From Psammoneis japonica (Eukaryota), in assembly GCA_008632985.1 (NCBI GenBank), contig QPGO01000175.1, forward strand, positions 1 through 64,000: 64,000 bases of DNA, given 5' to 3'. Shown one piece after another: positions 34,210 through 60,596 of this stretch. Made by a program: the position numbers and the translations under genes. Numbering within the stretch: position 1 is the stretch's first letter; every line of letters begins with the position of its first letter. The notes beneath the pieces are model-generated. The model worked only from the letters and a program-made list of their open reading frames with translations. It made no database searches and had not been told where the DNA came from.

Positions 34210-37200
34210 ACTCGTTTGACAGCATGTTGCGCAAACTCCATCGAACACAGTTTCAAATCGGAATTCAGCAGGCACAAACGAAGAGAATCTGTGCTTTGTG
34301 CTTGATTCAGCAGCTCGCAATTCCTCTTGTGCATCAGTCAAGTTCACGTTGTGCGCGTGCCGAGGGCCGAGATGCATCAAGGGAGGGCACAGCGAGTCTC
34401 CATCGTCTTGCACAGGGTTTGTGAATGCTGCACCTCAGCTCATGCTGGCCACCATTGGAGATGGCACCACAAAGGGGCACCCAACTCCAAAGAGAAAGGC
34501 AGCTTGTTCTGTCAAGGTGACACACTGTCTGGGAGACAAGTTTGGATGATTGGTTGTTCATGGAACAATTCCCATCATGACAAGTGCTGGAGCACAGGGT
34601 GAAATTGTGGTGGAGCAGCACCTCCAAGATCTGCAACATGTTTCTTCACACAGGACAAGTCAAATGCTGCATCTGTCCCCGGCATTGTGCCAACCCTTTC
34701 TCACTCTGCCACAGCAGACATCCAGCAAGTCATGAATGGATGTTTTTCTTGTTGAAAGACTCCTTTTGGTTTGCAGAGCCAGTGTGCATTTTTGTTCAAC
34801 AAACCCCGGCCCAAGATTTGTGGGGAATTCAATGTTGACTGGGCTTCAGCCATCAGGTCATGTCATCCCTTCTTGTTCAGGGAAAAATTCGGTGTTGACT
34901 CAGCTTCAGCCATCAGGTCATTTCATTCTTTTGAGAACATTGGTTGCCAAATGATGAGGCCATTGCTCTTGTCTTCATCCAATGCATCTTGTTGTTGTGT
35001 CATGTCAGCCCGGGCTAGAGACCATTCCAGAACTGCAGTGAGCTTGTCAACACCCCCTCTTGCAACGACACTTTTGGCCCAAGAAGACAGTGTCTCCTGA
35101 CCCTGCCAACATCACTCGCCAATGTTTTTGCTGTGTGGACATTGTGATGGCAGGGTCTTGCCTTGCTCTGGTGCAACATGGCAGAGCATGCTGAAAATTA
35201 AAGCCAGCTTGTTTTCTCTTTGCTGCCATTCACCTTGGCACACAACACGCTCATGCTCATGTTTTTCCTGCCCCACCACATCTTGTTGTGTGGCAAGACT
35301 CAGCCACAGAGCATCATCTTGCACCAATGCGGTGCTCTCAGCCATGGCAGCAGCAAAGGCTCTCACATCTTTTGCTTTGCACAAGCAAGGTGTGGCATTT
35401 TTGATGTGCTGCACTCACCACCTCATTTCAGCCATGCTGGTGCACCTGGTGCAAAAAAAATGCCTTTCTCATGCACAATGGATTGCCCTTGTGGCCATTG
35501 CAAGCCAGTCTTGTCAGTCTCAACCTTGTTGCTTGGGCCCTTTCTCTCATCTGGAGCAGCCAGCCAAACTGACTGGTGTGGCCAATCCTCAGCTGGCTGT
35601 GTCAAGTTGCAGGTGTCTTGATGCATCAACGAGGTTGCTGCACTCTTGCAGTGTCAGGGCAAGTTGTCATTTTGAGCACCAAGCTGGAGAAAAAACTCTT
35701 TGCTGTTTTTTTTCATTTTCTTTGCTCTGCTCATTGTCTGGCAAATCTCCAACACAATGATTTGCTGTGTTTGTCATGCCCACACTTGCACCCTCTGCTT
35801 CCAAGGAGTCAAAATGCAGAAAACAAGCTGTTGTTTGCAAGAAGCTGAGGAAGATTGCATGGCAAAATCATCTTTCTCTTGCTGAGTTCATGATTTGCCA
35901 CCTTTCCTGTTGTCAAAATTTGCCTGTGCTGCTTGGCTGACTGGCGAAGAGCCAGTTGCAGGGCATGATCTAACAGTGTGGTTGTTGCTCTGTTGTTTTG
36001 GGGTGCTGGAACAAGGGCCACTGCACCATTTTGAGCATCAAGCAAAGAAATGCCAAAACAGTCTGCCACTTTGCACATTTTCTGCTCTGCTTGTTTTGTG
36101 GCAGTCAAATTTCCAGCAGCATGGTCATTTGCTGCACTCAGTTTGCTCTGTGCACACCGCACATTCGCTGCTCTCATCCAAGAACAAACTGAAATTTGGG
36201 GAGCACACATCAAAAATCAGCCAGGTGGCTCCGTGCAATGTTCACTCCACTGACTCTGGCAAGTGCTGTGCCTGCAGATGCACGTGTGGTGGTTGTCTCT
36301 CAGGTGACAACAAGGTGCATGTGACCCAAGAAGAAGTGCACGTGCAAGACTCACCATGATGCTCCTCACTGTGCTGAGTGCAGGAGGCTGGCGCAACCCA
36401 GCCACATGAGGTTTGGTGTTGTCTGCAGCTCTGCAAATGAGCCAACCATGATCATTGCCAGCAAGACTGGCTCAGGAGGATTTCCAGGCTGGCAGCATCA
36501 GTGTCTGAGCATCAGCGCAGGGCAAGGGAAGTTGGCTTGTGCAATTTTCTGCATGTCGAGTGCCGCAGCACAAAGGTGCATGTCAAAGAAACAAAAAGGC
36601 AATGTGCGCAACCATGTCAAGATGTCACATCATGGCATCATGACCAAAACTTCTTCTGCCATGCATCACATTTTTGTTTGTGCCTTTTGGTCAGAAGCAG
36701 CTTCCACTTCTTGAGGCACAGCACGCAATTTTTCTGTCCAATGGAGCTGCAAGGCAGAGTCTTGAATGTGAGAAGAGAGAGCCAAAAGCCAGCTCTGTGC
36801 ACAGCAGCAGCAGCAGCAGCAGATGAGGGCCAGCGGGCAGAAGCAAGCTGGGGGGGGCTCAGCTCAAGACAACATTCCTGTGTTGTTGCACATGCTTTGT
36901 GCCAACATTTGTCCAGTGTGTGAATGAATGTCAGGAGGGCCAATGTTGTTTGCTCCACACCAGCATTTATGTGGGCTCCTCACTCAGAGAGAGACACACA
37001 CAGCAAGGTGCCCCCCCCCCCCCCCTCTGTTCCATGTGGAGCTCTCATGTGGCCTTTTGATCATCGTCTTTGTCAGCATTGTTGTTGTTGTTGCAGCATG
37101 ATGTGCTGGGACACTGCCACCATGGTCAACACAAGCTGTTGTGGTTGCTGCTGCTGGTTGCCGAAGAGGTTGCAACGATTTTGAGGGCACGGCAATGCGT

Positions 37201-37300
37201 CTGAGCCTGTGGGCAAGCGGCGTGCTGGATGGACGAGTCAGTCGTCGAAGTGCCTGAATCAGAATCATTCGACTAATCAGGTGGCTCACGACTGAAAAAA
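34210..37300. other. Heavily decayed tract lacking TpA and most CpG (old TE or duplicated gene relic)
   Basis: TG/CA-rich sequence; 60-bp tandem duplication at 34826-34930; no recognisable domain. Confidence 0.6.
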
Positions 37301-37517
37301 AGTCCTCGACAGACGTACTGACACATTACCAGAGGCCGCGTAGATCGCACATACATAGATTTGTAGTTGTTGTCCAGTACAAACACGCGATGGTGAGTGC
37401 ATCACCAACGAAGCACGAGAGAGGCCAAAACAGCAGGTTGTTGTTTCCAAGAAGCACTCTGACGGTACTGTCAATGATCCATCCCATGAAAGAGCATCAC
37501 ACACAGAACGTCTAAAT

Positions 37518-40500
37518 ATGCCTCAATCAGACCTTCCAGAAGAAGATGAAAGACCGATCGTTGACGCTGTTCCAATACAGGAAGAGCAATATCAGCCGCC
37601 ATCACGCGCACTGATGCGCAGAACAATTTGGTTGCCTACTTTTTTGCTGCTTACTTGGGCGTTGGCAATGCAACAAGAGCATGCAGCTGCAGTAGCGGTG
37701 GCAAATAATGCAGATGTTGACAGAACACTTCCTAGAGAAAGCGAAAGGAACGACAAAAATTACCATGAGACGGAAGCATGGCGATCTGGCAACGAATTGG
37801 AAGAGTATCACGATTTCAGCGATGAATACAGACGAGGCGGAAACGACAAATTGATGAACGACGACAGTGACGGAGACAAAAATGAGGACTCTGTTATTGT
37901 TGTGTCAATGGTGGATGGTTCTATGGCGGGGCTTTCGAGAAAGACAGGAGCAACGATATGGAAGCAAGCGCCTACGGCAGGCAATGAACAGCCGAGCTCC
38001 TCGTCCCCAGCTGCCTCCGGTGATCGTCCTGACGAATCATCATCACAACACATGCGCCCAAACAAAGAAAGCAGAAAGAAGCATGAGAAATCAGACCCAG
38101 ATAGAGGACAGATCCTCAAACCACTGGTATCAACGTCAACAACTACAACCTCCTCCTCCAGCGGACAAGATTGGAAAACAGGCAAGTGGACTAGCGAAGT
38201 GACGGAGCTTGTAACCGTGTCTCTCAAAAGTGCCTCACATCTTCCATGTTTATATACTTCTTATACAATAGCGGCGGTTCCGTCGGTGGATGGACGGGTA
38301 TACTTGACGGCCGGTCGAGACGCCAGTAGTGCTCCATCTTCAACCGAAGTTCACGGCACAACAACTGTGCGGGAGCTTGTCTCGAGAGCTCCTTTCGCTG
38401 ACGAGCGAGGCAGATTTTATGTTGGTTCTCGTCAAGCCATCGCTGCAGCTTTAGACCGTGACACGGGTGAAGTACTGCGAGTAGTTTCTGGATCCACAGC
38501 AGGCAGTGAAACTCAAAGCAATGTCCTGGAGGGTCGCAATGTACTGTGGGTGGGGCGTGTAGATTACAGCGTCTCAGTCTATGACGCGCGCACGGGAGAG
38601 ACAGATGTTCACTTCTCAGCATCGGAAATCATGAGTGTTAATGACATGATCCATGGGAAAACTGAATTGGCGAGCAACCAAGAAATGCGACCTGCAGGTG
38701 CGCATGGTAGCTCCCAGCACGCACCTCGGCTGCTGCTTCCCAGCGGCGGTGGGACCGAATCGTTTCTGTCCAAGGCAAAGACTTCGCTCATAGTGGCGAC
38801 TCCCAATGGAAATGTAGCGCTTCGAAATCCTGATACCGGACAGATCGAATGGATTGCCAACGAGACGTTTGACAGTGCCATTGCTTTTGCTGTGGAATCA
38901 TCAAGCGGTTCATCACTTGGTGTAGACATTTTACCTGATGCTACTGTCCCCAGTTCGTCTACAGAATATTTATCACGGGAGTTGGAGCGACAGGCAGAAG
39001 CACTAGACAACCGAGGTAGCAATGATAGTTTTGATAACGAAGAACAAACTATTGTGGGATCGCTGGCAAGTGGTGAGCTGTTTGCCATGCCACTAGGCAG
39101 AAGACAGACGTCGGTTTCGTGGGCCTCGACCCTAGGCTTACCGCAGTCTCACTCCATCGCCTCTTCGTCATCGGCGGTGGGAAATACCAAGCAGATGGTC
39201 ACAGTGCCGAATATTCTAGGGCGTCAGCACTCGCAGAACTTGCAGCAGCAGCAGCAGCAACACGACCCATTCCAAGGCAACCGACAGAACCGGAAGGGGT
39301 GCAACCCATCCAGTTTGGGATTCCCTGGCTGTCTTGTTGGCAACAGCTATCAAAAGAGAGACGATTTTGCGAATGCGTTTTTACACCAAGCGACACATCA
39401 AGCAAGACCTTTAGCCGACAACTCGGTTGCCCTTCCTTACCATCCCGGGGTGGGCTTCATACCACCCGAGGAATACGCTCAGAATATCGCACATCAGAGT
39501 CTCATTCGTACTTTTCTCCGCATCATGGCATCGTGGTTACCGCCCACAATGGCATTGATTTTCGTGTTGTCATTTGAACTCGGACGTCGTCAGCGAATCA
39601 AGGAAGACAGGAAAAAGGAAAAGAAGGAACGAGAGAGTGCAAGTTTGGCAGCTCAGCGTTCGTTGCCTAGCAATGGCACAACAGATGAACACGAAGGACT
39701 CGCAGAGAAAACTACTAGAAGTATCGGGGTGATTCAAGTTACAGAGGAAGTGTTGGGCTATGGTGGACATGGTACGGTTGTCTACAAGGGAATGCTTGAT
39801 GGACGCAAGGTTGCGGTGAAACGCATGCTTGAGGCCTATCACGCAAGTGCCGATCGAGAGATATCCCTTCTAATTGAAAGCGATGGCCATCCAAATGTCG
39901 TTCGATACTTTTTGAAGGAAGTCCGAGGAGATTTTGTGTATTTGGCACTTGAGTTGTGTGACATGTCTCTTCATGACTTGATTTGCGCGCTGGCTTCTCG
40001 GAGGCCTAGTAGTGACGACGAGGACGATGTTATTTCTTCTGCGACAAAGACGACATTGCATCAAGTTGCGTCCGGTGTGCGACACCTACATTCCCTGCGC
40101 ATCGTTCATCGAGACCTCAAACCAATGAACATTTTGATGCAAGCCCAGTCAAAAGGAGAAACGGAGGAAACAAACGCGTCTACTGACGATTTCTTCCCTC
40201 TTTTTGAGAAAGGCGAATACATCGCCAAAATATCTGACATGGGACTCGGGAAACAACTGGCAGGACAAAGTAGCTTCGGAATCAGTACGCTCGCTAACAC
40301 CTCAATCCAGGGCGCCGCCAACGGAGGAGCCGAGGGCGCGAACATTGTTGGTGCTGGGCCCGGTAGTGTTGGATGGCAAGCACCTGAAGTTATGGCCCTA
40401 CGCTGGTCTCCGGAATCGGTTCCTTCTAGGACCGACGGAAGCTCGATGGGCGGTACAGACTCGCTTGCAGAGGCCTCTCCTATTGAGGGAGGGATGGCCA

Positions 40501-42017
40501 ATCGAACCAGTAGATCAGTTGACATCTTTTCTCTTGGCTGCATCTTCTACTGCACTCTAGTCCCAGGATCGCACCCATTTGGTGAATGGTACGAGCGAGA
40601 GGCAAACATCATGAGAAACAAGCCAAATGTGGAACCTCTTTTGAAGCTATCAGCCGAGGCCTACGATCTAGTTCGGTCTATGATTCACCGTGATCCCAAG
40701 TCCCGCCCCACAGCAAAAGAAATATGCGAGCACCCTTTCTTTTGGAAGCCTTCGAGGCGTCTTTCTTTTCTATGTGACGTCTCTGATCGACTGGAATGCG
40801 ACGCTCTGCGAGAGAGCAACGAAGAAAGTTCAACGCCCGATTCGTGTTTCAAAGCGCTAGCAATTGAAAGGAATGCGACACAGGTTGTTGGTACTGCGTG
40901 GGACAAGAAGATTGATCAAGACCTCAACAACAACGTTTCGCGTTTCAGGACGTACGATCCATCATCTGTTCGTGATTGCCTTCGAATGATTCGGAACAAG
41001 CATCATCACTATGATGAACTCCCTGCTGAAGTCAAGGAACGAGTTGGCTCCAACCCTGATGGTCTTTTGCTCTACTTCGAGAGGAGATTTCCACGTCTTC
41101 TTATGCACTGCTACTCTACTTGCCGTGAATACTTGTCATCAGAAGATTCACTATCGACAAAGTACAAGATACCACAACGGAAAGGAAGAGAGAGAGGGGA
41201 GGCGGTAACAAAAGTTCCACGCGCAGATCTTGACGAAAAAGAGAAACGGAACGAGAAGGATGAGGTTCCAGAGATATCGGGAACCTACGTGCTACTGGCG
41301 GAAGAAACGACTACCGAGGAGAATTTGACATTGGTAGAAAACGTGTCCGGCGATGAAGATAGAGAGTCATTACTCGCCGGTAGCTCTCCTCGGGGGGGCC
41401 TAACAGACAAGGAGCACATTCTTTCCGAAGCAGAACCTCGATGCAACACGCCGATTCTAGTACCTTCTGCGACGTTATTGCCATCCACATCTGACGACGA
41501 GCACAAACAAGATAGAGCGTCTAGCTCTTTGGATGAGCCTATGCCTGCAATTGTCGAATATCCTCAAGACATCATAGTTTGGGAAGCTAGTACTGCTGCA
41601 AAAACTCTGAACTGCCGTGGATGGATGCGATCAACTGATGAATGGGTGCGAAGAACCGACGCGAACCTTAGAAAGCGCGACGCGAACGTTACAAGATGCG
41701 CAGGAGATGCAAAATTTCGTACTCGATTGTGCAATCACTGGGACGTGAGCATGGGCACATTCTGTCCCATGAGAAGAAAGAACAAGTGTGTTTTTGCGCA
41801 TGGTCCTGTAGAGCTTCGAGTTAAAGATGGCAAGAGACAACGATGGGGCAAGCTAGTTGACAAGAACGGAAACAACTCAAATCCAAACCATTCAGGCGGC
41901 GAGGACACGTACGGTGCAGCACGTTCGATTGAAACAGTTCGAAAAGAAGAAGGCAAATGGAAAACAGATAGAAGAGGGAAAAACAAAGGGAGACAAGGGG
42001 CGGCGAAGAAGAAATGA
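37518..42017 (+). CDS. IRE1: IRE1 kinase/endoribonuclease with C-terminal CCCH zinc finger; probable 90-nt GC-AG intron 38182-38271
   Basis: Signal-like segment from Met at 37614, luminal domain, TM, LGYGGHGTVVYKG, DGHPNVVRY, HRDLKPMN, ISDMGLGK, KEN domain (DCLRMIRNKHHHY). Confidence 0.93.
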   Translation: MPQSDLPEEDERPIVDAVPIQEEQYQPPSRALMRRTIWLPTFLLLTWALAMQQEHAAAVAVANNADVDRTLPRESERNDKNYHETEAWRSGNELEEYHDFSDEYRRGGNDKLMNDDSDGDKNEDSVIVVSMVDGSMAGLSRKTGATIWKQAPTAGNEQPSSSSPAASGDRPDESSSQHMRPNKESRKKHEKSDPDRGQILKPLVSTSTTTTSSSSGQDWKTGKWTSEVTELVTVSLKSASHLPCLYTSYTIAAVPSVDGRVYLTAGRDASSAPSSTEVHGTTTVRELVSRAPFADERGRFYVGSRQAIAAALDRDTGEVLRVVSGSTAGSETQSNVLEGRNVLWVGRVDYSVSVYDARTGETDVHFSASEIMSVNDMIHGKTELASNQEMRPAGAHGSSQHAPRLLLPSGGGTESFLSKAKTSLIVATPNGNVALRNPDTGQIEWIANETFDSAIAFAVESSSGSSLGVDILPDATVPSSSTEYLSRELERQAEALDNRGSNDSFDNEEQTIVGSLASGELFAMPLGRRQTSVSWASTLGLPQSHSIASSSSAVGNTKQMVTVPNILGRQHSQNLQQQQQQHDPFQGNRQNRKGCNPSSLGFPGCLVGNSYQKRDDFANAFLHQATHQARPLADNSVALPYHPGVGFIPPEEYAQNIAHQSLIRTFLRIMASWLPPTMALIFVLSFELGRRQRIKEDRKKEKKERESASLAAQRSLPSNGTTDEHEGLAEKTTRSIGVIQVTEEVLGYGGHGTVVYKGMLDGRKVAVKRMLEAYHASADREISLLIESDGHPNVVRYFLKEVRGDFVYLALELCDMSLHDLICALASRRPSSDDEDDVISSATKTTLHQVASGVRHLHSLRIVHRDLKPMNILMQAQSKGETEETNASTDDFFPLFEKGEYIAKISDMGLGKQLAGQSSFGISTLANTSIQGAANGGAEGANIVGAGPGSVGWQAPEVMALRWSPESVPSRTDGSSMGGTDSLAEASPIEGGMANRTSRSVDIFSLGCIFYCTLVPGSHPFGEWYEREANIMRNKPNVEPLLKLSAEAYDLVRSMIHRDPKSRPTAKEICEHPFFWKPSRRLSFLCDVSDRLECDALRESNEESSTPDSCFKALAIERNATQVVGTAWDKKIDQDLNNNVSRFRTYDPSSVRDCLRMIRNKHHHYDELPAEVKERVGSNPDGLLLYFERRFPRLLMHCYSTCREYLSSEDSLSTKYKIPQRKGRERGEAVTKVPRADLDEKEKRNEKDEVPEISGTYVLLAEETTTEENLTLVENVSGDEDRESLLAGSSPRGGLTDKEHILSEAEPRCNTPILVPSATLLPSTSDDEHKQDRASSSLDEPMPAIVEYPQDIIVWEASTAAKTLNCRGWMRSTDEWVRRTDANLRKRDANVTRCAGDAKFRTRLCNHWDVSMGTFCPMRRKNKCVFAHGPVELRVKDGKRQRWGKLVDKNGNNSNPNHSGGEDTYGAARSIETVRKEEGKWKTDRRGKNKGRQGAAKKK

Positions 42018-43034
42018 TAAATGGTGCTTAGAGTGTCTTAGACGAATTCCACGCTAGCTCTCCAGGCACTGTGGCCCTACCGGTAAAACTATGTTGTGCA
42101 GTACGGGAAAGGATGCTGAATCACCAATGATGCTCGCAGTAGTCGGTTAATGACCCCCTTATGTACTCTGCGGGGTAAACTCGTCCATCTTGGGGTTCAC
42201 AGACAAGGACAACAGTAAACGGCAGTTACCGTCGGAGGGGAAGAGCTTATTCGTAGTTCGGTGCCAGCGGACAAAAAGAACTCTACCATGACTTTGTTAG
42301 GACGAAGGAGAAATGACCGGTACCACTATCCTGCATGCTAACCTCATAGTCCTGTAGTTCGTAATCTTCAGATTCAACGAACTTCCGGCAACATCCGTGC
42401 GTCACAAAAAATCTTGACAAAGACTTTCGTGTTTCGTGGCGGCACAGTGGGCACAAAACGTGGCATAATTTTTCAGACTTCACTGAACCACGTACTATGA
42501 CTTCGGACAGGTCATCATCTAGAGTTAAAATGTATACAATTCTGTAAAATAATTTATGTCGTAAGATGGTCATTCGGAGTTTTATGACCTCCTCGAAATT
42601 TGACGGGAAAAAGTCAACGGAAAATATTTAAGCCCAAATTGGACGGGGCTTAGTTGTTCATTTCCGTTCTCGTGCAGAAAAGCCGATACTTCCAGAATCC
42701 ACTAAATGCTGAGGTAGAAAACCACCTGCTCTTCTTCTATCATTTCTACAGGATTGATCGTAGAAAATCTAATTCGAAACTATGATCAATTTACGACCAC
42801 CATTTTTCTCTACGTATCCGTAGGCGTTGATTGTAAGGTCATGAATGACTCCTATCAATGCGGTATCACTTTACTTAAGAAAAGGTCATTGTCATACTTC
42901 CTCCCTCTTTTCGGATGTTTTGAGTGACGAAACCGACTTCGTCGCGACCACAAAACTCAAAACTCCCTTTTCAATCAGCACACAATTTCTTCAACAAGAT
43001 CTTTGTTCCGACATCTCTTTCTTTGGCCAAAAAC

Positions 43035-43553
43035 ATGAACGTCTCTATGATGAACTACGCACCCAAGTCTCTCGAAGAGAACTCCATTATTGAGAGCACG
43101 CACGTCAAGACTATCATGAACGACGACCTTGAGTTGATGGACAGCATCGACCTTGAAGACGATTTCCTGCTAGATCTCGACACCAAGCTTCCCCACATTG
43201 CTGACAGCTTCTGTGACCCCCTGAAACAGGAAGCATGCAGCTTTGACGTCTTGGGAGAGCCACAAGATCCGATGGACCTCGACGATATGCCACCAATGGA
43301 TACCCACTTCTCCGGCTCCAACGACCTCCAAGATCTTCAACAACAATACAAGATTGCGTTGAAGCAGCTCGCCACTGCCATGAAAAGATCCGAGGTCACG
43401 CGCAATAACATCATCCGCCTCAGACAGAAAAGTGACGAGCCCATCCCCGAAAAGCATGTCATGGGCTTCCTGAACGGATCAAGAACAACTTTGACGTCCG
43501 GGTTGGAGCATTCAAGAAGCATGCTTCAGGCTCTTGCTACTCAGACCGTATAG
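43035..43553 (+). CDS. Hypothetical acidic protein with C-terminal coiled segment
   Basis: ATG-initiated ORF with coding-like codon use; LATAMKRSEVTR helix. Confidence 0.7.
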   Translation: MNVSMMNYAPKSLEENSIIESTHVKTIMNDDLELMDSIDLEDDFLLDLDTKLPHIADSFCDPLKQEACSFDVLGEPQDPMDLDDMPPMDTHFSGSNDLQDLQQQYKIALKQLATAMKRSEVTRNNIIRLRQKSDEPIPEKHVMGFLNGSRTTLTSGLEHSRSMLQALATQTV

Positions 43554-44161
43554 TGTCGTTGTGCATATCTACAGAGGTTGCCATAGTTAAAACCTCAAAG
43601 ACGCACGCCTGAATAATTCGTTAAAGAAGTAGAGATCCATTTGTACATACTTATCCTTTTGATTCTTTACCATACGTTCGTTCCTCCACAGTCAAAGATA
43701 CCCTTTGCATTTTTCGTCAATCGATCGCCACCGTGAAATAACGACTTGGTCGCTGTTTGAGGGGAATCAAATCGCTTCCCAATTCAGTTGAATAAGTACA
43801 GGAGGTAAATGCGAAGGGATGAAGGAGTTGTTCTCTACACTCTACACCATATTGAATACTGTATCGTTCTTTGGCGTTGCTTGGTCGATCATCGTCTTGA
43901 ATCATCATCGGCGGTGCGCCTGGTCATCAGGTTCTGTCGCGCGGTCGCGCTTTGGGTCGCGCAAATCCCCTTGAGCTGTCCGTCGTCAGGGTGTCGATTT
44001 GGCGCGCGAACGCTCAGCTCCGATGATCGATCTTCGCGTCACAATGCTCAAGATAATGCGGGTGGCGGCGACACGTTGCGGCAACCAGAGTAAAGGAAAG
44101 CTGCAGTATTCTTTTGGCGACTGCACTTCACAGCCAGTTTATTCGTAATAGAAAAATAGAG

Positions 44162-45763
44162 ATGAAAGGGTGGTCGTATTTCCTTTCACTTTTCATGTTG
44201 TTGAGCCATGGCTTCGCATATTCTCCCCTGCATCATTCAAGACAAATGAGACCAGAAAAGCAAATGGGGTCAGAGCGAAGAGTTGCCAGTGCACTGTCGT
44301 ATGACGCAGTGACAGATCTACCAGTGGACAAAGAAGAATCTAAGGTCGGAGTTTTGCTCTTGAACCTTGGGGGACCGGAAACCGGAGATGATGTCGAAGG
44401 TGCGTGGTTCTGGTTCCATGTTGAACTTATTTTTAATTGAAGTCAATGGAAATACCTTATTCAAATGCATTGCTGAATAGAACAACTCATGGTTAGGATT
44501 CGCCCGACTGACTCATTGCGCTTTTTTTGAATTGCGTTTTGAACAGGCTTCCTGTACAACCTGTTTGCCGACCCTGACATTATTCGACTGCCGGGACCAC
44601 TAGCACCATTACAGTCACTAATTGCATGGATAATATCGAAACGGCGAGCACCCAAATCGAGGGCTGCCTACGAATCAATCGGCGGGGGGTCTCCAATCCT
44701 GAAGTATTCCAATGCGCAGGCGAAGCTCATGAGTCACTCTTTGAAGGAACGATATGGCCTAGATGTTAAGGCGTATATTGGGATGAGGTACTGGCACCCG
44801 TTTACTGAGGATGCTTTAGAACAGATTCAAAAGGATGGTATAAATGCTCTGGTCATTCTCCCGCTATATCCTCAGTTCAGCATATCCACGTCTGGGAGCA
44901 GTCTGCGAGTTTTGCAGGAGATCTTCGCCAAGAACACAGATCGGTTTGGAGCTAATAAAATGGTTCACACGGTGGTCCCCTCGTGGTACGATAGGCCGGG
45001 TTATGTCAAGGCAATGGCAGACCTTATTCAGAAAGAGCTTGAGTCCTTCACACCTGAAGAAATTGCGGAGGGCACGGCAGCGGGGCAGAAATGTGCCCGC
45101 CATGTACTGTTTTCTGCACATGGGGTGCCAAAATCTTACATCGACGCGGGGGATCCATATCAAGAACAGATAAAGGATTGCGTTAGAAAAATATCCGAGT
45201 TGCTTCCCGGGCCCGAGGCCGGCGTCGAAATCCATCTGAGCTACCAAAGTCGGGTGGGTCCCATCGAATGGCTTCGTCCGTACACTGACGATGTGCTTCC
45301 GGAGCTTGGGGCTAGTGGTGTTAGAAACTTAGTTGTTGTGCCAATTAGCTTTGTCAGCGAACACATCGAAACGCTTGAAGAAATCGACATTGAATATAGA
45401 GAGTTGGCTGAAGAAAGCGGCATTACGAACTGGAGAAGGTCTCCCGCCTTGAATACTGATGGTACCTTTATTGATGACATGGCTGACATGGTTGTGGATG
45501 CTCTTACTGAACCTGCTCAGACGGTCACGGAGGCATGCGTGGCCAACAATTGCGGGGATGTGGACTTACTACCAATCGACGAGCGAGTAGGAATAAACAG
45601 CGCAGGAGTGGGCGGTGTTGGCGCAGAGGCTGACCTGATTGCTACCGAGAGGTTGAAAGATAAGGAAAGGATAAACGGGAGAGTGGCGATGTTTGGTGTG
45701 GCGGCTACGCTCTTAGTGGAGCTTCTGAGTGGAAAACCTCTGACGCACATGCTGGGTTTCTAA
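44162..45763 (+). CDS. hemH: Ferrochelatase with C-terminal CAB motif; exons 44162-44399 and 44547-45763
   Basis: GVLLLNLGGPET, FLYNLFADPDIIRLP, LFSAHGVP, YQSRVGPIEWLRPYT, SFVSEHIETLEEID, ERINGRVAMFG. Confidence 0.96.
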
Positions 45764-50147: not shown

Positions 50148-50204
50148 GACTTTTGGCGAAACGCATGCCGCGATACCATACACTGTACGGTACGTAACAC
50201 AGCA

Positions 50205-51226
50205 ATGACCATGGTGGCCGCAGCGCAAGACAGTGTCGATCAACCGGCCAACATCGTAGAAGAGCGCATCGAGAAAGAAGATGAAGACCATGTTGCTGTT
50301 TTGATTGAGAGCGTCCAGAAACGTATTCAGGAGGATAACGAGCAGTTTCCTGAAGCCCAGAGCGTGTCTTCGTTTTGGGAAAGAAAGGTTGACGCATCGC
50401 ACGTGGCGGAAGCGATTCGTGTGAGTGATTCGATGCTTGGTGATACAGATCATCTTAATCGCATACTGGTAGCGAGAAAATTCAGGATTGAGAAAGCGAC
50501 CGACTTGTTCTTTGAGCAGGTTCGCTTCCGTGCCGAGTGGAGGCCCAGCGAAATTACGCCCGATTTGATTCCTAATGCATTGCCATGTAAGTGTGACAGT
50601 TTCGACTTATCGAGGTGAATACAGTACGTCGAAGTGCCAGCTCTCATTCGTATTTCTCTTTCTTGACTTATGTGTCAGCTGGGGCTTGGAGGCTTTGCGG
50701 GTATTCACGAGAGGGCTGTGTGGTTTCCAACTACAAATTGGAGTACTGGAACCCTGACGAATACGAGAAGGAAGATGGCAAGGGGCTCGAGGATGCTTGT
50801 GCAGAATACACTCGATATATCCTGTATATGATTGAACTCATGATGAGAAACAGAAAACCGGAACCTGTGTCTCAACAGTTTGTTGTTCTTTTTGACCTGA
50901 CGGGTTTTTCAACGAGGCTCGTCTTTCGAAGCAATGTCAGGCTCATGATTGAAAACCTCATTTATGTTGCACAGGCTCAATACCCGGAGCTTCTACACAA
51001 GGTGTTGCTTGTCAATGCACCATATGGCTTTTCTACGGCCTGGAAGCTAATAACACTGTTGTTGGACGAGAAAACCGCATCCAAGATTCACTTTGTTACC
51101 CCTGAGCAAATTTTGGACGACATTGCCCCCGAGGTTTTGAGTACGGAATATGGCGGATCGCACCCAGAATACCCTATTCTACCAGACACACTTGATCAAG
51201 CGGAGGAGGAACCGATTGATAATTAG
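50205..51226 (+). CDS. CRAL-TRIO/Sec14-like lipid-binding protein; exons 50205-50586 and 50679-51226
   Basis: RILVARKFRIEKA, VVLFDLTGFS, QAQYPELLHKVLLVNAP, EYGGS; GTAAGT..CAG intron restores the frame. Confidence 0.92.
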
Positions 51227-51964
51227 GAAAGTTGGGGGATTAAAATAGTTTTTGACTACCGGGTAAGAGTCAAGAACAAAGTCTATCGCCAGTTACACAG
51301 TGTACTGTATGGCAGAATGCTGAGCACGGGCCAGAATCCACCACTGAACAGATCGAAGCCTGCAGACCTTTTGAATATTTTAAGCTAATGAGTTACGGTA
51401 GCCAACGTTGATCCCAGCACTTGAGTAGCGCAAGGTTACCCAGTGGAAGGGAAAGGGGATGAAATGCGGACTCGGGGGTGACCAACGAACAATGATATGT
51501 CGCCCAAGTTTGGTCTGATATTCAACATTGAATTTTACACCTTCTTTGAAATCATAGTCATGCCGTTTGCATCTCTCATCAAATTCTTCCACACATCCGT
51601 ATCGGCACCATGGCAGATTTTGGAGCAACCACACAACCATCTCTCAATCTCTTCAACAAACACAGGAGCCTCTATAACTGTAGCACAGTTTTAGGACAAC
51701 TGCTAACATGAGACAAACTTAAGAATTATATCAAAAGAGTCTCTAAAACTGAGCTGGTGTGCGAATACAGTGGCTTTGATTCCTATACAGTCGGGATAGA
51801 ACGAAATACCATGTACGACATTTCTCAGCTTCTCGCATCCCGATTTGCAGCTTTGTCGTTCGCATTCTATCATGAAGTGGCATGGCTTCTTCCTATACTT
51901 GAGCTCCGTGATACGTTATACGTACAGGGTCCTCTAGTCTCTGCTTTTTCATCCTTGGTTTTTT

Positions 51965-52636
51965 CTACACATCAATTGTGATGTGTGTCGTGGCGGGTCG
52001 CAAAGGAGACGCTGGAGCTGCATCAGACGCAACCTCATGCGAGACTGCCTCAGAAGTCTCGTTGCTTGAGCTGACTGACATCATTCTGGCAAATACGATT
52101 GGTGGATTCAATTCGTTGTTGACAGGAACCCCTTCTGAAGAAACACCAATAGGAACCGCCCTCACGGTTTGAACAGTCGACCTTGCTACTCTCAGGTTTC
52201 CTGATTCACCAGATTGCTTCTTCGCTCGCTTAACAACGAAGTAGCTATAAACCAAACCACAAAAAACACAGATTAAAAGTACACCGACTGCAATACCTTT
52301 GTTAGGAGAAGGCGCCGATTCGGTGGAGTCGTCAATGAATAATTCGTCGTCATCATTGGTGTCGACCAGTTCATTGCATTCGAATGTCGAATTCAGAGCT
52401 TCGTCAAGAAAGAAGGAATAGTTGAGGCAGCTTTTGCTTAGATCGATGGATGAATTATTGCGCCCATTGCAAACGCAAACGTCTTCCGTATAGAACGCAT
52501 AGTAGGGAAGGCTATTCGTGCAGAAGGTGCAACCTTGGTTGACGCAAGAAAGACACTCATCCTTCTGAGAGATTGCGATTGTTCTGACAATGAAACCTGT
52601 AGAGTAAGATACAAGGAGAACAAATGACAGTTGCAT
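51965..52636 (-). CDS. Single-pass membrane protein with Cys-rich extracellular part
   Basis: Signal-like start MQLSFVLLVSY, CLSCVNQGCTFC, TM GIAVGVLLICVFCGLVYSYFVV followed by KRAKK. Confidence 0.7.
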   Translation of the reverse strand: MQLSFVLLVSYSTGFIVRTIAISQKDECLSCVNQGCTFCTNSLPYYAFYTEDVCVCNGRNNSSIDLSKSCLNYSFFLDEALNSTFECNELVDTNDDDELFIDDSTESAPSPNKGIAVGVLLICVFCGLVYSYFVVKRAKKQSGESGNLRVARSTVQTVRAVPIGVSSEGVPVNNELNPPIVFARMMSVSSSNETSEAVSHEVASDAAPASPLRPATTHITIDV

Positions 52637-54932
52637 CAATAAGCCAGTGGAACTTGAGTGTTGTTTTCGAAGAAAAATGTGAGCGCAGTCATAACCTCCC
52701 ACCTCGGTTGCCAGCATGCAGGTAAGTCCCGCGCGACCCTTGCGTGACTCAAAACTGCTTGAGCAATGTTGTGGCGTGACATCGTGAGGGTGAAAGCCAC
52801 AGCAAGCTGTCGCATTTGCTGCCCAGCCATTCCCAACTACAGTGAAGCTCCACCTCCAGTTCCTTCATCCCATTGATCCTGCTGACAAGCCTGACACCCG
52901 TGTCTCTCCTTCCGACATCTGCTCTCCTCCATCACTCCTCCTGCTGTTGATGCAGTGTCCTGCTCTCTCAAGAGAGACGCTTCCTTCCAGCTTTTGGACG
53001 ACCTTTTCTGGAGCCAAGTGCTGTGCCAAGCCTTGCTAAAAGCAGTGATTGTCATGCTGTGATGTCACCTTCTTGCTGGAACCCTTCTCTCTGATGCCTT
53101 CAACTTTTGCCTCTTTGGTGGTTCTCAAGCCACCTTTGCCTTTTGATGAAAAAAAAGGCACCCCTGCAAGCTCCCCCAGACCTCTCCAAAACTGTTTTCC
53201 AACTTCCACTCACCTGACTTCCTTTTCCCAACTCTCCTGCATCCCAGCACACTTGTGAGTTCCTCCTTGATGAGATCCACAACCCCGCCAAGAGGCTTGC
53301 CTTGTCCCTCCCACTCTTCTGGCCCAAGCTTTGCCCTTTTGTCCAAGTTCCACCTTCCTTGATCATGTTGGTCTCCTCACCTCCCCCAGATTCCTTTCTT
53401 GGCTCATCTGTGTTCACTGCCCATCTGCCCAACAAGCTTTGAAAGCCAATGCCAAGTTGCTTGTCTTGCATGCCATGAGCTTGTCTTTGACCCAAGCTGT
53501 TTCAAATGAACAACAAAGATCATCTTGGCTGCTGCCTTTGCCCAAGTGACATTTGCCGCATCAGCCATCAATCAGCCACCTGCACAGGAAAGTGACAAAC
53601 CTGTGCTGAATCTCTCCAGTTTGTCTGGAAAATGTCATGGCTTTTGTTCAGAGCTCACATTCTCTTGTTCAGAATCGTGTGTTTTTAACAAGTCCTCAAT
53701 GATTGTCAACAAAGGGAGTTTGATTGCTGTTTCAACCTTCCAAGTGGGATTCAATGGTTGATGCAAATCAGTCGCATGACACACACACTCTTGTCAATTT
53801 TTCACATCTGCTTGTTTTGACATTGTTTTTGCATCTGTCCATTGTCAGGTTAAACTGACCTTCCAAGGAGGAAATCACAGTTGACAAACTTGCCACTTGC
53901 ATTTGTTTCCATCTTGACAACCGTTTGTTCACAACAATTTTCTGACATTGTTCATTTCTGACAACGATGATGTTCAATTGTCTTGTTAACCTGATTGCAC
54001 ATCGGCTGTGTGCTGCTTGTCATCTGATTTGCCAAAATGTTCCATTTTGTCATTTCTGCACTGCACACCAAACAACAAACAATGCCCCCTTTTTTTCCAC
54101 TCTTGCTTTCTCCTGCATTCCACCAGCTCCTGTTGTCCTTCTCAGTTCCCACATGATGGGTGTGATGTTTTGGTTCTCATGTCCTCCCTTGCAACCACTC
54201 TTGCTCTTTTTGCCAATGTTTGCACCAGGGAACGACACTGTCCTGCAATCATCTGTCTTGTGTTCCTTCTGTTTGGCAGGCCAAAGTGTTGCCTGCAAAA
54301 AGAGAAAACTCAGCAGCACCAATGATCAGGTTTTGTGCATGTCTTGTGTTTCTTTTGATCTTGTCTCACACACTGCTTCTGATTGCCTTTGTGCTCTTCC
54401 CCATTGCCTGTCTTCCATTGCAGCTCAGGTCATGCACCCAGATGCTTGTGTGCAAAGATGTGCGCAAGTGCCAGTCATTTGCATTGTGCACCCGATCTCC
54501 ATCCATTCACCACTTGTTTTCTCACCTTGTGTCTTGCATTTTATTCCATCCCATCCACAATGCCGCTGCCTGTCCCCACTGCTCTCATTGTCAGATGTCA
54601 GATGTGACTTGAGTTTGCATTTTTTGTGTCTTGTGAGGGAGTGACAGTTCATGCTTTTTGCCAAAATGCAAGCCTGACCATCAGTTGACACCTGCCAGCA
54701 TCTCTTTTTCAGCAACAATTTTGTTTTAAAAATCAATGATTTCATTGCACACAATGGTTCAAATGATTTGAAACCACCTCAATGAATCATTCAGTCATTG
54801 ATGTCACACATGGATTCAACAAGTGTGATTTTGTCACACAAATGTGTTCTTAAGATTGAAATTTTCACACTCATGCTGCACACTCCCAGCTCCAGAACCT
54901 CAATCAACACCTTTTTGCCATTTGGTGTGTTC

Positions 54933-56295
54933 AAAAATTGCCACTGCCAGCAAGACAATCATCTCTCTTGAGAAAGCTCAGAAACAGGCCCTTCATGCTG
55001 GTGAAACAACAACTTTGGAAACCCACCTTGTAAAGAAAGTGGGCAACTTGAAGGTGGGTTGGTCTTGCTCTTCTGTTGTTCTTTCTTGGTTTTCCATCCA
55101 AACAAGAGACAGGGAATGCCATGATTTCCATTCAGTGACTCCCTGCCCTGGTTGTTGTTGTTGGCGCCTCTGGGACACAATGGAGGCACCCAAAAGGCCA
55201 TCCAAAGACAACTGGGCACTTGCACTCTCACACCTGTCACACGGCACACAAAGCTCCATTGTCTCATCTGTGCGACAGCTTGCACTGGGCCAAACCCAGC
55301 CATGATGTCAGAGAGACAAGGTGCTGCATTGACACAAGACAAGGCTTTTTCTTTGCTTCCCAACAACCGTTGTTGTTGTTCAATCAACACCTTTTTGCCA
55401 TTCAGCCCTTTTTTGCCATTTGGTGTGTGTTCATTGACCATGCCGCCAAGAAAAATGAAGAAGCAGAACCCACAAGGTGCTGGCCACAACAATGCCAGTT
55501 GCGCCAATGCCATTGGCAGCCATGGTGGAGGTGGTGGCCATGGCGGAGGTGGTGTGCTTGCAGTGCTCAAGTGCAAGGTTGAGGTCCTCCCAGGCAAGGC
55601 TCCAGGACAAGACCTTGGTGACCTCAAGGCTCTTTGTCCAGAGCTGCTCCAGGAGCAGCCGGTGACCCAGGATCTGCCGCCACCGCTGCAGCCTCCAACA
55701 ATGAAAAAGCTGATGCCTTTGACAATGTGTCAGACAGCTGCTCCCCTGCAGTTCAACAAGAAGATCTTGACTTTCTCAAGGAGCACAAGAATGAAGTCCC
55801 TTCCTGCAAGACTCCCTTGCTGCTTGGAGCCTCCAAGCACCAGCCACCTGCAGAATCAACCCAAAAGAAATGTCTGGCAATGAGTGCAGAGTGTGGCTGT
55901 TGTTTTGCTGGCAGATGCACAGCCTTTGCAAAATTCAAAACAAAAAGATGTGCAAGCAGCTGCAGCAAAAGTGTAAAGCCTGCAATGCAAAAATTGCCAC
56001 TGCCAAAAACAAAACTGCTTCTCTCCAGAAAGCTCAGAAACAGACCCTTTGTGCCAGTGAAATGACAACTTTGGAGACCAACCTTGCAAAGAAAGTGGGC
56101 AACTTGAAGGTGGGTCATGCTCTTCTGTTCTCTCTTGGCTTTCCACCCAAGCAAGAGACAGGGAACACAATGAATTTCCATCAACTGACCCCCTGCCCTG
56201 GTTGTTGTTGGCTCCTCTGGGACACAATTGGGGCACCCAAGGCCATCCAAAGACAACTGGGCACTTGCGCTGCTGTCACACCTGTCACACGGCAC
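54933..56295. repeat. About 300-bp direct duplication (54933-55250 and 55990-56295)
   Basis: AAAATTGCCACTGCCA...AGAAAGTGGGCAACTTGAAGGTGGGT...CCATCCAAAGACAACTGGGCACTTGC in both copies. Confidence 0.9.
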
Positions 56296-56945
56296 AGAAA
56301 GCTCCCTTGTCTCTGCAGGTGAGGTGGCTGGGCCAAAGCAAGCCAATCACATCAGACAGGAAAGTGGCTGTGTTGGCCCAAGATCAGGCTTTTTCTTCCA
56401 GCTGTTGTTGTTCTTGCCTCCTCAGGGTTCCAATGAAATCTCTTGTGCCCACTCCAAGACAAGTGAGTGCTTGTGCTGTCACACAGATGGCTGGTTCTTG
56501 GCTGGGCCAAACCCCCAGTCATGTCAGACAGACAAGGTGCCTGCATTGACACAAGACAAGGCCTTTGCTTCCCAACCATTGTTGTTGTTGCATCTTCTGG
56601 GACCCAGCAGAGTCATCAAATGCCATCCCAAGACAATGAGCACTTGCATCATCACACAGATGGTTTTCTTGTCTCTTGGGTTGGCTGGCTGGGCCAAAGC
56701 CAGTCATGTCAGAGAGACAAGGTGCTGCATTGACACAAGCCAAGGCATTTGCTCCCCAACGATGGCTGTTGACATGTCCCTGGCAACCCACTGGAGTCCT
56801 CCAATGCCATCCCAAGACAACCCGCACCTTCTTTGCCACATCTGTGGGCTTCGTGCTTGCACACCTCCTTGTGCAGAGCTGGGCATCTTCTTGTTTGTGG
56901 AGGAATTGCACAACGGGGCTGCTGCTGCCCAAGACAAGGCTTGCA
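56240..56945. repeat. Degenerate tandem array with period about 175-205 bp
   Basis: GGGCCAAA..ATGTCAGA(C/G)AGACAAGGTGC..CATTGACACAAG at about 55288, 56504 and 56691, weaker at 56330; CCATCC(A/C)AAGACAA-type block at about 56243, 56450, 56623 and 56807. Confidence 0.8.
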
Positions 56946-59900
56946 GGCAGGTTCCCAAATCAGAGTGCAAAGCCCACACAATTTGGCCAACCCACTCAAA
57001 AAATGCAGACTGAGTGCATTTGGGTTGTGTGTCATGCAGGGAGCAACTCAAACAAATGTTCATTTGTGGCGATGATGATGATCTGGCTTGGCATTTGTCA
57101 AATGTTTGCTGGGACATGGGGACACCACCACATGCTCCATTTTAGCCACTCAAGTGGCACTGGCCTGTGCAGCATGCACCATCCACCCGGCAAGCCTGTT
57201 AGTTCAGAAGATGAGTTGCACAGTGCCCAGCAGGAAAAAAGGACAGGTGCAGCAGAGACAGAGCAAAGCAAAGGCAGAGAGTTGACAAGGTGGAAGGAAA
57301 AGGAAACAAACAAAGCTGTCCTTGAGAGGTTGCAAACTGAGGACAAAATGAGCCACACACAAGCAACTAAAACAAAGGCAGAGATCTGACAGATGGAGGG
57401 GGCAAAAATAAAGCTGTTCTCAACAAGAGCTTAAAATGAGGACAAAATGAGCCACACAGTTGACCCATTTGATGGAACCCCCCGCAAGTCCACACGACCA
57501 TCCAACAGAGCATTTTTTGTGAGTGAAACACAACCCTTCTCATGTTGTCACCACAACAATTTCTGTTTCAGTCTGTTGCATGCCAACCTTGTTGTGGCTG
57601 TCCTGCTGGCAATTGTTTTCAACAAGCTGTTTGTTCCACTCCTCTTGGCGAGGTTTGGTCACAGTGATCACCAGCAGAAAGTGCTTTTGTGACAATGACA
57701 ACAACTGTGTGTTGCAACATGGGACTCTGGACTTGTTGTGAAGTCCCAGAAAAGCCACCATGCTGCAGTGCCTTGTGCACAAGGTGAGGATCCATCCACA
57801 CACCTTGCAAGCCAGCCAGAAATGCAGCAACAAGAAGCGTTGTGGCCTCCTCAATCTTCATGGTTGGTTTGATGCTTTTGTGATGGGAAACACATCACTC
57901 AAGTGCCTTTCAGAAACATGTTGCCAAGCTCACTTCTTCCCTTTGCCACAACAGATTGAACTGGCAAACTGCACACACAGAGAAAACACTTGTGTGAGCC
58001 ATGCAGGCAACTTGAGCAAAGGCAGAGATCTGACAAATGGAAGGATGAAAACAAATGAAACTGTCCCCAACAAGTGTTTAAAATGTGGACAGAATGAGCC
58101 ACACAGGTGGCTTGAAATGAGCAAAAAAGATTTGTTTGTTTGTCACTTCATGACTGCCAAGAAACAAAACCAACAATTGAGTGTGTTGAAGATCTGTGGA
58201 TGCAATCAGTGTGCATGTGACAAATTTTGCTCATTGACAAGTTGTGCTCTTGTCAAGCACAGAAACATGTCACAGACGTTGGATGTTGAGTCAGCAGTCT
58301 GTGATTGTTTGGATTTTTTTGTTGCACCTCTTTCAATGCGTGGTGTCATCATTCACAGTTGTGGCTTTGCACTGAAAATTGTGCAGGATCCACCTCTGCA
58401 CAGGAGAGATCACACAGAAATGTTTGCTGGGCAGGTGAAAAACATGCAACAATCCTGGGGAATGGGGTTTTCTTGCAAAGCTCTGCCTCAAGATGTTCAA
58501 ATGGCGCTGCAGGAGGTTGACTGCCACCCAATTGCTTGACTTCTGTCACATGGCTTGAACAGCTCAAGCTGGTGCAGTTTTCCCCACTTGGCTTGCGTGG
58601 GCACCACTCTTTGATCCATCACCACCAGAGGCATCATTGTTCATTGTGCTCACACTGCTCCTCTCCAATCTCTTGAGAGATGACATCTCTTCTGACACAT
58701 GGATTGCAGCCTGGTGCTTGTGCCTGTCTGCCTCTGTTCTGACATGCCCATGCTGTCGACACTGCCTGCTGCTGCCTGCAAGACATCTGTTGTCGTTGCC
58801 TTCAGCATCTCTCTGTCATCTCATTGGAGTGAGATGAAGACACCAGTGCTCCAGGGCTGTGTTCCATGTCTGCTGTGTGACAAACATGTGGCCAGCAGTG
58901 CAGTCTCAACTTCCACCTCCTGCATCTGTGCACATGTCCACCATGATGAGAGTTGCCACTGGCCTGTCTGCTTGGAGATTTCCCCATGTCAAAACTGCTG
59001 CCAGTGACTTCCTCTCTCTGACCCACAGAGTTTACATTGTGATCATCAGCCAAGGCAGATTCAAGAGCAGGAGGGTCTGCTGTGGGATCTCTCATTGTGG
59101 CTGAACAAGAGCCCAGGTGCCCAACATGTTGTGGAGCAATCACAACAAGCAGCACAAGAAAGCAGCTCAGATCTGACATCGAGCCTGCCACCTTGTTGTC
59201 AGAGTGCTCTGGCCCTGGCCCCACAGGCAAGATCACTTCTGGATGTCTCTTGTCATCAAGCAAACCTGCTGCAGACCAGGATGGCCCCACACAAAGCAGT
59301 GCAGCAGCTGTGTTGGACAGCTGTGCCATCACAGCAACAGGCAGAGAAGCCTGGACACCTTGAGGTGAGCTTTCTGAGGTTAGATTGCCAACACATGACC
59401 CTTGCAGACTGCCCAAGCACCAAGCTGAGCAGGTGCACATTGATTGTTCTCCCATGGTCAGTTGTTTTGCAAACCATTGTTGATGTCTTTTTTAGTGCAC
59501 CACTGCTTGTCAGCACAACTTGTTGCGATTCAGTCATGAACTGATCAAGTTTTTGACTTGACTGCTTTCTCTCCAGTCTTTCATTTCATCAGTCATCAAC
59601 TTTGATTGCCATCAGTCAATTTTTTGGTTGGTGATTGCTTTTCATTGCATCCTTTGAGCACGAGTCCAATGGACAACCACTGTGATTTCCTCAACACATT
59701 TCCACTCAGATTTCAAATGTGTGAATGAATGCCAGCACCAGCGGGTGTTTGCAGATGGTGCTGGGACCTCCCACTGACATCATCCCTTTGCAGAGACATG
59801 CACTGTCATCTTTTGTTGAACCTGTGGCTGATCTCACTGTCCACCCTGAAGTCAATGCTGGCACCACTCACTTCCTCGGTTGGTCAACCTGCCAGATCTC

Positions 59901-60596
59901 CCGATTTTGCCCCTGAGTTTCTCATCACCACAAAGCTGCCTCCTTCACCCAAGAGATCTCCTTTGCCTTGCAATCCAGCTCACTGACAACAAACCCAAAG
60001 CAGCACTCTCTTCTGCAAATGCACAGTTCTTTTCATCATGCACCTCCTTTCCACTGGCTGATGTCCATTTCAACCTGCTGTTCCTTGGTGAACCCCTGAC
60101 CTTTTCCATTGGGCACCTCACCTTTCACAGATGAAGTTGTCAGTCCCTCTCTTTGCCTCAGTTCCTGTCTCATGCTGCAACTTCTCTGCCTGTTCCAACT
60201 GTGACCCAACTCATTGCTCTCATCTCCCTGTGCCTCCCTTGGCAGGTCTAGCCACAGTGTGGTGCATTGCAGAGTTGAGTGTTGAAACACTGCAGTTGCC
60301 CAGGTTATCTCCCAATGTTGTGTCACGGAAAACAGCAGTTTGAGCACTAACTTAAAACACCTTCTAGCTGTGCAATAAACTAAAAAGAACTGAATCCTAG
60401 CTAGGAAATGATCGGGCTCACTATAAACAGAGAATAGAAAAAGACTGCACCTTCCCCATTGAGTGTTTGAGGCGAAAAACAATGGCGACAGTTCACGGCA
60501 CCAATCGAAATGCCTGCGCCGAAATCAACCGGCACCAGCCATTAGTTGGGTGATGCACAACTGCATTATTGTGATCTATCATCATTATTTGTTACT

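Follow-up and report, generated by a model that had tools for sequence, protein, structure and literature searches.

TpA is lost far faster than CpG in apparently silenced mobile DNA of the diatom Psammoneis japonica

In the first 64 kb of contig QPGO01000175.1 (C175) of Psammoneis japonica (assembly GCA_008632985.1, 91.4 Mb), several mobile elements have lost nearly all of their TpA dinucleotides, and some tracts have lost CpG as well. This stretch of 64,000 nucleotides is referred to as the window. The comparison of graded copies of these elements showed that, in mobile DNA that appears to be silenced, TpA is turned into TG or CA at a rate tens of times that of CpG decay. A sequence-only reading of the window had described two tiers of decay, namely, TpA-only tracts (tier 1) and TpA-plus-CpG tracts (tier 2). 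These tiers are probably the young and old stages of one course in silenced domains.

The ratios of observed to expected counts (o/e) bore out most of that description. TpA was almost absent at 6700–11100 (23 TpA, o/e 0.09) and at 22800–28300 (15 TpA, o/e 0.04), and CpG, much of which had been said to remain, was partly retained there (182 CpG, o/e 0.65, and 168 CpG, o/e 0.50, respectively). Both dinucleotides were depleted at 34210–37200 (4 TpA, o/e 0.02; 40 CpG, o/e 0.22) and 52900–60345 (20 TpA, o/e 0.04; 49 CpG, o/e 0.11). The background values for TpA and CpG were 0.65 and 0.97 at 28500–34000, and 0.67 and 0.97 at 42000–52800. The proposed convergence on TG and CA was also observed, as their o/e rose to 1.55–2.05 in the four tracts compared with 1.1–1.2 in the background, while the GC content was unchanged (0.48–0.51). 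A two-state segmentation placed the TA-void tracts at 6655–11082, 13534–15080, 21865–28427, 34210–37273, and 52724–60248, of which 13534–15080 was absent from the earlier reading. The long readable open reading frames (ORFs) reported in the tier-1 elements were found; the longest stop-free frames were 512 and 671 aa (simulated means 213 and 217, maxima 360 and 475), whereas the tier-2 tracts reached 219 and 274 aa (simulated means 212 and 219). Because the tier-1 frames exceeded every one of 200 composition-matched simulations per tract and the tier-2 frames matched the means, this contrast is real. The tier-2 tracts had been called unrecognisable. This holds for Pfam, with no match at the curated cut-off among 16 and 22 ORFs, but not beyond it, where a repeat family and a gene copy were recognised.

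The speed of both processes was determined from an unconverted reference. E3 ("tier 0"; 28587–31415, minus strand) is a probable tyrosine-recombinase (Crypton-like) insertion with 115 TpA and 170 CpG (o/e 0.66 and 0.95, respectively) and copies ranging from 100% to 72%. Its Atlas neighbours carried phage-integrase, ALOG, and NDC10_II families with scores of 0.97–0.98, its own PF16787 match was weak, and no terminal inverted repeat (TIR) was present among the five longest inverted pairs listed. A public contig showed the empty-site joint 28586–31416, and a second public run contained GT..AG joints within E3. The insertion is very recent; E3 is likely still active and offers itself as a reporter for the mutator. 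In six copies with 0.04–0.17% transversions, the TpA losses were 12/115, 14/113, 65/114, 83/115, 88/115, and 46/51, and the CpG losses in the same order were 4/170, 2/164, 4/168, 7/169, 4/169, and 1/82; TpA conversion had thus reached 57–90% in four of them, which would imply a rate that exceeds the background by orders of magnitude. Pooled, 308 of 623 TpA were lost versus 22 of 922 CpG, giving an uncorrected hazard ratio of 44. Two CpG sites were removed from the count because five of the six closest copies shared the difference, which is therefore specific to the reference. After this correction, 11 of 911 CpG were lost, and the hazard ratio was 92 (Poisson range 52–185), a wider gap than composition by itself would indicate. 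In older copies, the TpA and CpG losses were 72/83 and 34/123 at 1.06% transversions, 57/63 and 35/100 at 1.48%, 62/70 and 52/91 at 1.73%, 101/107 and 105/146 at 2.64%, and 30/33 and 41/57 at 5.2%.

Similar to E3, a family of miniature inverted-repeat transposable elements (MITEs) provided an unconverted reference, so that the saturation of TpA conversion ahead of CpG decay, as the earlier reading had supposed, was measured in two families. The copy in the window (22269–22779, 511 bp with TIRs) has 18 of 25 TpA and 3 of 30 CpG converted, with two transversions. Results for this family refer to the best 30 of 42 matches, a choice that favours young copies. Among these, 299 of 746 TpA and 112 of 898 CpG were converted (ratio 5.2), five copies showed no conversion, and CpG loss exceeded TpA loss in a single copy (TpA 1/25, CpG 2/30). 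The lower ratio would be expected partly from saturation and from copies escaping conversion. Both TpA and CpG losses depended on the flanks (rho about −0.6); transversions did not (−0.20). The partial correlation of CpG loss was 0.75 with TpA conversion and 0.23 with transversions.

The tier-1 tracts belong to two elements with short branches. E1 (6414–11280, minus strand) is present in multiple copies and contains a 3'-5' exonuclease ORF (PF01612, E 1.6e-10); an Atlas search with its upstream ORF gave no usable match. Its TA-void part covers 6655–11082; the final ~200 bp at either end retain TpA (o/e of the margins 0.54 and 0.71). Its copies show identities of 92–93%, 83%, 85–89%, 70%, and 66%. 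The branch of E1 itself carries 8 transversions in 3879 columns (0.21%), and 135 of the 169 CpG of the nearest sister are retained (80%). Moreover, the copy on contig C116 is of tier 2 and has the longer branch (26 versus 12 transversions; 12/75 versus 52/75 CpG kept), and therefore one family covers both tiers. Short tandem repeats of 45 and 63 bp lie within the exonuclease ORF at 8260–8460, and one N occurs at 8692.

E2 (22818–28559, minus strand) is a putative P-element-like DNA transposon with TIRs of ~140 bp and a broken transposase. The TIRs were found in E2 itself, and Pfam support for a P-type transposase came through homologues only: PF21787 was detected in 14 of the 24 homologues scanned (nine at the curated cut-off), one of which also carried PF12017, while a homologue search with the N-terminal ORF gave no match. 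The left TIR is converted, and the right TIR (28428–28559) is not, with a TA o/e of 0.68 in the right margin. The branch of E2 carries 6 transversions in 4249 columns (0.14%), and 93 of the 127 CpG of its nearest sister are retained (73%). Along this single insertion, the CpG o/e was 0.64, 0.58, 0.25, and 0.60. The CpG-poor segment of 1.55 kb (25575–27128) was also poor in other copies (o/e 0.17–0.31, including one copy at 7% transversions), and the union of CpG sites over the close copies was 32 compared with 24 in the window. This low CpG content is inherited and is no sign of age.

In the case of tier 2, T3 (34210–37273, TA o/e 0.02) contains a CpG-void core at 34405–37161 (o/e 0.14) and is mostly single-copy. 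Because one public short-read contig, probably from the same sample, reproduced 34268–37027 with no substitutions and eight gaps, T3 is not an assembly artefact. The second public run covers neither E2 nor T3, which was not taken as a sign of silence. A GT18 glycosyltransferase gene is present in T3 as a broken copy (34228–34826, minus strand); its homology extends to 33736, into a far less converted flank, and T3 is comparable to other loci through this paralogous gene only. The intact, TA-normal ORF on contig C62 (PF15024, E 3.6e-26) matched at 71% of amino acids (tblastn, E 5e-46). Within the T3 boundary, 17 of 20 TpA in the homology were converted and none kept; beyond it, 9 of 28 were converted and 14 kept. 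The TpA process reaches beyond transposons, to a duplicated host gene. In the alignment of 33736–34826 with the C62 loci L022 and L023, tyrosine codons read Cys or His.

T4/T5 (52724–60248; TA o/e 0.04, CG o/e 0.13) is a composite in which decayed DNA flanks a copy of a repeat family. Only one 100-bp match was found for 58300–60400, which is essentially single-copy. The repeat at 53624–58278 belongs to a dispersed family of ~4.65 kb whose members have fixed ends, inverted termini that are short, and arrays of ~190 bp inside; among 132 matches, the ends agreed in 12 and 8 copies. It is an old copy, probably of a non-autonomous DNA element. Relative to the majority of 21 rows, it showed 1.64% transversions, and it kept 6 of 54 CpG, compared with a median of 1.9% and 101 of 919 CpG kept in the family. 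The family has 139 hot YR (pyrimidine–purine) sites in 1404 columns. Because this number matches the estimate for an unconverted ancestor (~94 per kb), the decay took place after insertion.

The earlier reading had proposed that the CpG ratio could date elements, and CpG loss was indeed correlated with an independent measure of age. In E3, the correlation with transversions was 0.84 (rho, p 1.7e-4) for 14 of 24 rows and 0.82 with all 24, the E3 divergences including drift of the active lineage. The rows dropped were L100–L105 (near-identical to L099), L108 (the same alignment as L109), L106 (a second piece of L095), and L110 and L111 (<300 bp). In the MITE family, rho was 0.56. The CpG loss fraction in E3 copies was 0.28 at 1.06% transversions; 0.35, 0.57, and 0.72 at 1.48, 1.73, and 2.64%; and still 0.72 at 5.2%. 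Similarly, CpG retention in E1 and E2 (80% and 73%) differed from that in the T4 copy (11%; Fisher p 5e-11). The residual CpG in old copies was mostly unshared (0–5 in common per pair), and CpG can form anew through A>G leakage at CAY, so the signal flattens near an o/e of 0.1. The raw ratio did not serve as a date, because starting content and chromatin position distort it: it ranged from 0.25 to 0.64 within E2, which is of a single age, a group of E3 fragments (L099–L105) was an outlier, and MITE values depended on the flanks (rho −0.59). How long DNA has been in a silenced domain can be read roughly from the share of ancestral CpG that is gone, but not from the raw o/e.

Two discrete tiers were not found either. 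In 190 bins of 1 kb, taken at fixed positions from 19 stretches of 10 kb, 69 were TA-void, and their CpG o/e was continuous (<0.3 in 39, 0.3–0.7 in 20, and >0.7 in 10). As the stretches were drawn from the largest contigs only, this sample under-represents small repeat-rich contigs. DNA that had lost CpG and kept TpA was nearly absent; CpG o/e was <0.3 in none of 108 TA-normal bins and in 1 of 13 intermediate bins. Among 625 bins of loci collected otherwise, which are overlapping and biased and serve as a consistency check only, all 257 CpG-poor bins were TA-void.

The sequence context of the fast step was consistent between both families (Y, pyrimidine; R, purine; V, not T). The A>G rate per opportunity was 0.32 at TAY and 0.15 at TAR in E3 (365 of 1146 versus 103 of 675 sites) and 0.26 and 0.14 in the MITE family. 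Over E3 and MITE copies, A>G at TAN was 0.14–0.32, compared with 0.000–0.038 at other adenines, which shared the bias toward a 3' pyrimidine (VAY 1.6%, VAR 0.4%). The 63 TpA survivors in the tracts of the window included 36 YTAR and 2 RTAY, compared with 188 and 380 among 1187 background sites. C>T was 0.026–0.096 at NCG versus 0.001–0.016 elsewhere, approximately ten times faster, with 0.005–0.016 at NCA. Both strands were hit, and runs tests in five copies were not significant (P 0.10–0.91), so repeated rounds on chromosomal DNA fit the data. APOBEC-type, strand-coordinated editing of one single-stranded intermediate was rejected on the same tests. Near-identical 2.8-kb E3 copies (99–100%) were almost unconverted (e.g., 2 of 115 TpA), element ends adjoining genes were spared, and the T3 boundary cuts across the GT18 homology. 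These patterns showed that targeting follows the local domain without regard to homology, and this domain is presumably one of chromatin.

Taken as one course, the fast step is a TpA-specific A:T>G:C change from TA to TG or CA on either strand, with TAY approximately twice as sensitive as TAR, and it reaches 70–90% conversion while neutral transversions are still <0.2%. The slow step changes CpG to TpG or CpA and, judged from the correlation, needs 1–3% transversions to come near its floor at an o/e of ~0.1. Tier-1 elements would then be young residents of silenced domains, tier-2 tracts would be old, and E3 would not have started.

CpG is known to decay through deamination of 5-methylcytosine (5mC). 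Here, spontaneous 5mC deamination is probably the cause of CpG loss, because CG methylation of diatom transposable elements (TEs) is known from Phaeodactylum and genes for C5-methyltransferases are present (27 PF00145 matches in the genome, among which DNMT5 was not identified). In Phaeodactylum, DNMT5-dependent CG methylation targets TEs (PMC9998398); the part of that text available here does not contain the word "deamination". In agreement with this methylation, CpG loss in P. japonica was confined to the same silenced tracts. C5-methyltransferase ORFs, some with stops, also occur in TA-void, CpG-retaining DNA at L149–L151 (C301, C297), and these loci are possibly methyltransferase-carrying mobile elements.

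As regards TpA, we lean slightly towards adenine deamination, with hypoxanthine as the product and a TadA/ADAT-type enzyme as the agent, since the graded context is similar to the YAC preference of an early TadA-derived editor. Early TadA-derived adenine base editor variants, as far as the available part of the source describes them, prefer YAC and produce A>G on DNA (PMC12703980). Likewise, A>G was found here with TAC and TAT as the best contexts, followed by TAA and TAG; unlike the natural process, those editors are engineered and guide-directed. TadA/ADAT-like ORFs were found at L137 (133 bits on NF008113, cut-off 150), L140 (46 bits), and L139 (37 bits). At L139:313-1785 (C79), TadA-like deaminase and 2OG-Fe(II) dioxygenase domains lie in one frame, and we assume that this fusion may be a guanine-deaminase-type housekeeping protein. 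A chromatin-guided, TAY-preferring TadA/ADAT-like DNA adenine deaminase that acts as a genome defence and erases TpA ~100 times faster than 5mC decays is proposed tentatively.

In place of an adenine deaminase, a lesion on thymine or error-prone synthesis or repair at TpA might be responsible, for example, a modified T that pairs with G or a mutagenic polymerase of heterochromatin; this would leave the rate order and the clock unaffected. As the changes TA>TG and TA>CA are symmetric between strands, RTA>RCA fits the data no worse than TAY>TGY, and no dedicated chromatin-reader deaminase fusion was found among nine PF00383 matches. This explanation is nevertheless rather unlikely, as only transitions occur and their rates are graded by context (TAY > TAR >> VAY > VAR) in a way that resembles TadA-derived editors (YAC; PMC12703980), and a partly available preprint on Bigelowiella favours A-deamination without showing it (10.64898/2026.01.13.699255). 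The tiers themselves might instead reflect two chromatin states, with TpA conversion wherever DNA is silenced and CpG loss in a 5mC-marked subset only; TpA-only tracts might then be old but unmethylated. The CpG-void core of T3 is bordered by TA-only margins (195 and 112 bp); these margins, the MITE partial correlations, and the outlying L099 group speak for such states. We consider this improbable as a replacement for the clock, since tier-1 branches carry 8- to 12-fold fewer transversions than the tier-2 family copy, tier-1 ORFs are longer than chance with CpG already down by 20–27%, and CpG o/e is continuous among TA-void bins; chromatin state would modulate the clock without replacing it.

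Homology sensing offers another trigger. Fungal repeat-induced point mutation (RIP) changes C to T at CpA and creates TpA. Similar to RIP, the process described here hypermutates particular dinucleotides, destroys repeats, and results in tracts with a sharply distinct composition, but it removes TpA, raises GC, and does not follow homology. RIP as known from fungi was therefore rejected, its direction being opposite and homology no trigger. A RIP-like process marking duplicates for TpA mutation would agree with the converted tracts being mostly repeats, including a duplicated host gene. It is very unlikely, because the near-identical 2.8-kb E3 copies are nearly clean (2/115), conversion in the 30 MITE copies depends on the flanks (rho −0.60) and is absent from five of them, and element ends and one TIR are spared despite equal homology. 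That the elements arrived poor in TA and CG, through ancestral composition or selection and with no change after insertion, fits the inherited CpG-poor segment of E2 (25575–27128). For TpA it is already refuted, and as a whole it is scarcely credible, since unconverted and converted copies coexist within families and, at 0.5% transversions, 60 sites over 4.4 kb read TG in one sister copy and CA in the other.

Several observations weigh against one course with a fast adenine deamination and a slow CpG clock. The ratio of TpA to CpG rates is uneven, being 5 in the MITE family and 44–92 in E3, and two of the E3 copies, L092 and L093, are tandem neighbours that share the direction of change at 57 of 75 sites and may not be independent. 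The CpG hazard per unit transversion varies from ~6 to 220 across copies. The L099–L105 group keeps ~85% of its CpG (11–12 of 80–82 lost) at 2.3% transversions, and the MITE link between CpG loss and transversions is weak once TpA conversion is fixed (partial r 0.23, p 0.22). Besides the TA-only margins of T3 (CpG o/e 0.94 and 1.20), there is one local counter-example at 60249–60472, a reverse margin in which 12 TpA are kept (o/e 0.67) and CpG is nearly gone (2 CpG, o/e 0.19); its TpA lie mostly in resistant contexts, and none is RTAY, the most sensitive. Sequence by itself does not separate an A-side from a T-side lesion. Finally, TadA/ADAT-like genes are expected for tRNA editing, and those found here could all be tRNA or housekeeping enzymes. 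Separately, the seven fragments L099–L105 (C387, C438, C487, C233) are near-identical and lie in a repeated unit of ~15 kb, and several of their TpA sites are now CG, which needs two successive changes.

In the open literature (subscription journals not covered), no report of TpA-specific hypermutation in diatoms was found, and TpA-specific hypermutation was described in one preprint only, on another lineage of the SAR (stramenopile, alveolate, and rhizarian) group. In Bigelowiella natans, A:T>G:C changes at TpA only, ~1000-fold over background, affect two integrated viral regions; TpA-depleted coding sequences are rich in transposon domains, and ADAT2 was proposed but not shown (Mettrop et al., bioRxiv 10.64898/2026.01.13.699255, available in part). 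As in Bigelowiella, transitions from TpA to TpG or CpA occur here on both strands of apparently silent, foreign-derived regions, and genes are spared (TA o/e 0.52–0.67 versus 0.02–0.09 in the tracts). Unlike in that system, as far as the available part of the preprint describes it, conversion in the diatom, a stramenopile, is near saturation (o/e 0.02–0.09 versus 0.45 in a Bigelowiella viral region), and it extends over 69 of the 190 kb sampled, with DNA transposons, MITEs, and a host pseudogene among its targets. The 3'-pyrimidine preference and the timing relative to CpG decay go beyond what that part reports; its main text contains neither "CpG" nor "diatom". In P. japonica, TpA hypermutation is near saturation across transposon classes, with its speed, context, and targeting rule obtained from graded copies. 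No look-alike stretches were found in the other genomes compared.

To our knowledge, there is hardly any record of natural enzymes that edit adenine within genomic DNA. The TAY-preferring mutator is a concrete knock-out target and possibly a new base-editor scaffold. If the deaminase reading is true, the diatom and Bigelowiella together would suggest a natural A-to-G DNA editor throughout SAR, and silencing could be timed across two orders of magnitude from the TpA and CpG marks combined. Unless TpA and CpG sites are masked, repeats in such genomes come out too old. Moreover, because TAA and TAG stops are lost, ORFs of 200 aa arise by chance, and gene annotation is therefore misled.

The remainder of the window contains compact host genes, namely, an IRE1-like kinase/RNase, TCP-1, ferrochelatase, GST, and CRAL/TRIO. 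The IRE1-like gene (37359–42017, plus strand) is unconverted (TA o/e 0.52, CG o/e 0.98) and adjoins T3 directly. A saccharopine-dehydrogenase-like gene (60597–62012, minus strand) is also unconverted, and the best named homologues belong to diatoms (Odontella, Cylindrotheca, Fragilariopsis, Thalassiosira, and Skeletonema). The fifth TA-void tract (13534–15080; TA o/e 0.03) is intermediate in CpG (o/e 0.50). Within 13497–15199, the tract is flanked by two pieces that are contiguous at other loci, and relatives at 67–69% range from unconverted to converted; it is probably a remnant resembling a long terminal repeat (LTR) element. At the edge of the 21.9–28.4 kb domain, high read depth and partial loss of TpA (o/e 0.2–0.5) at 20828–22155 point to another high-copy repeat.

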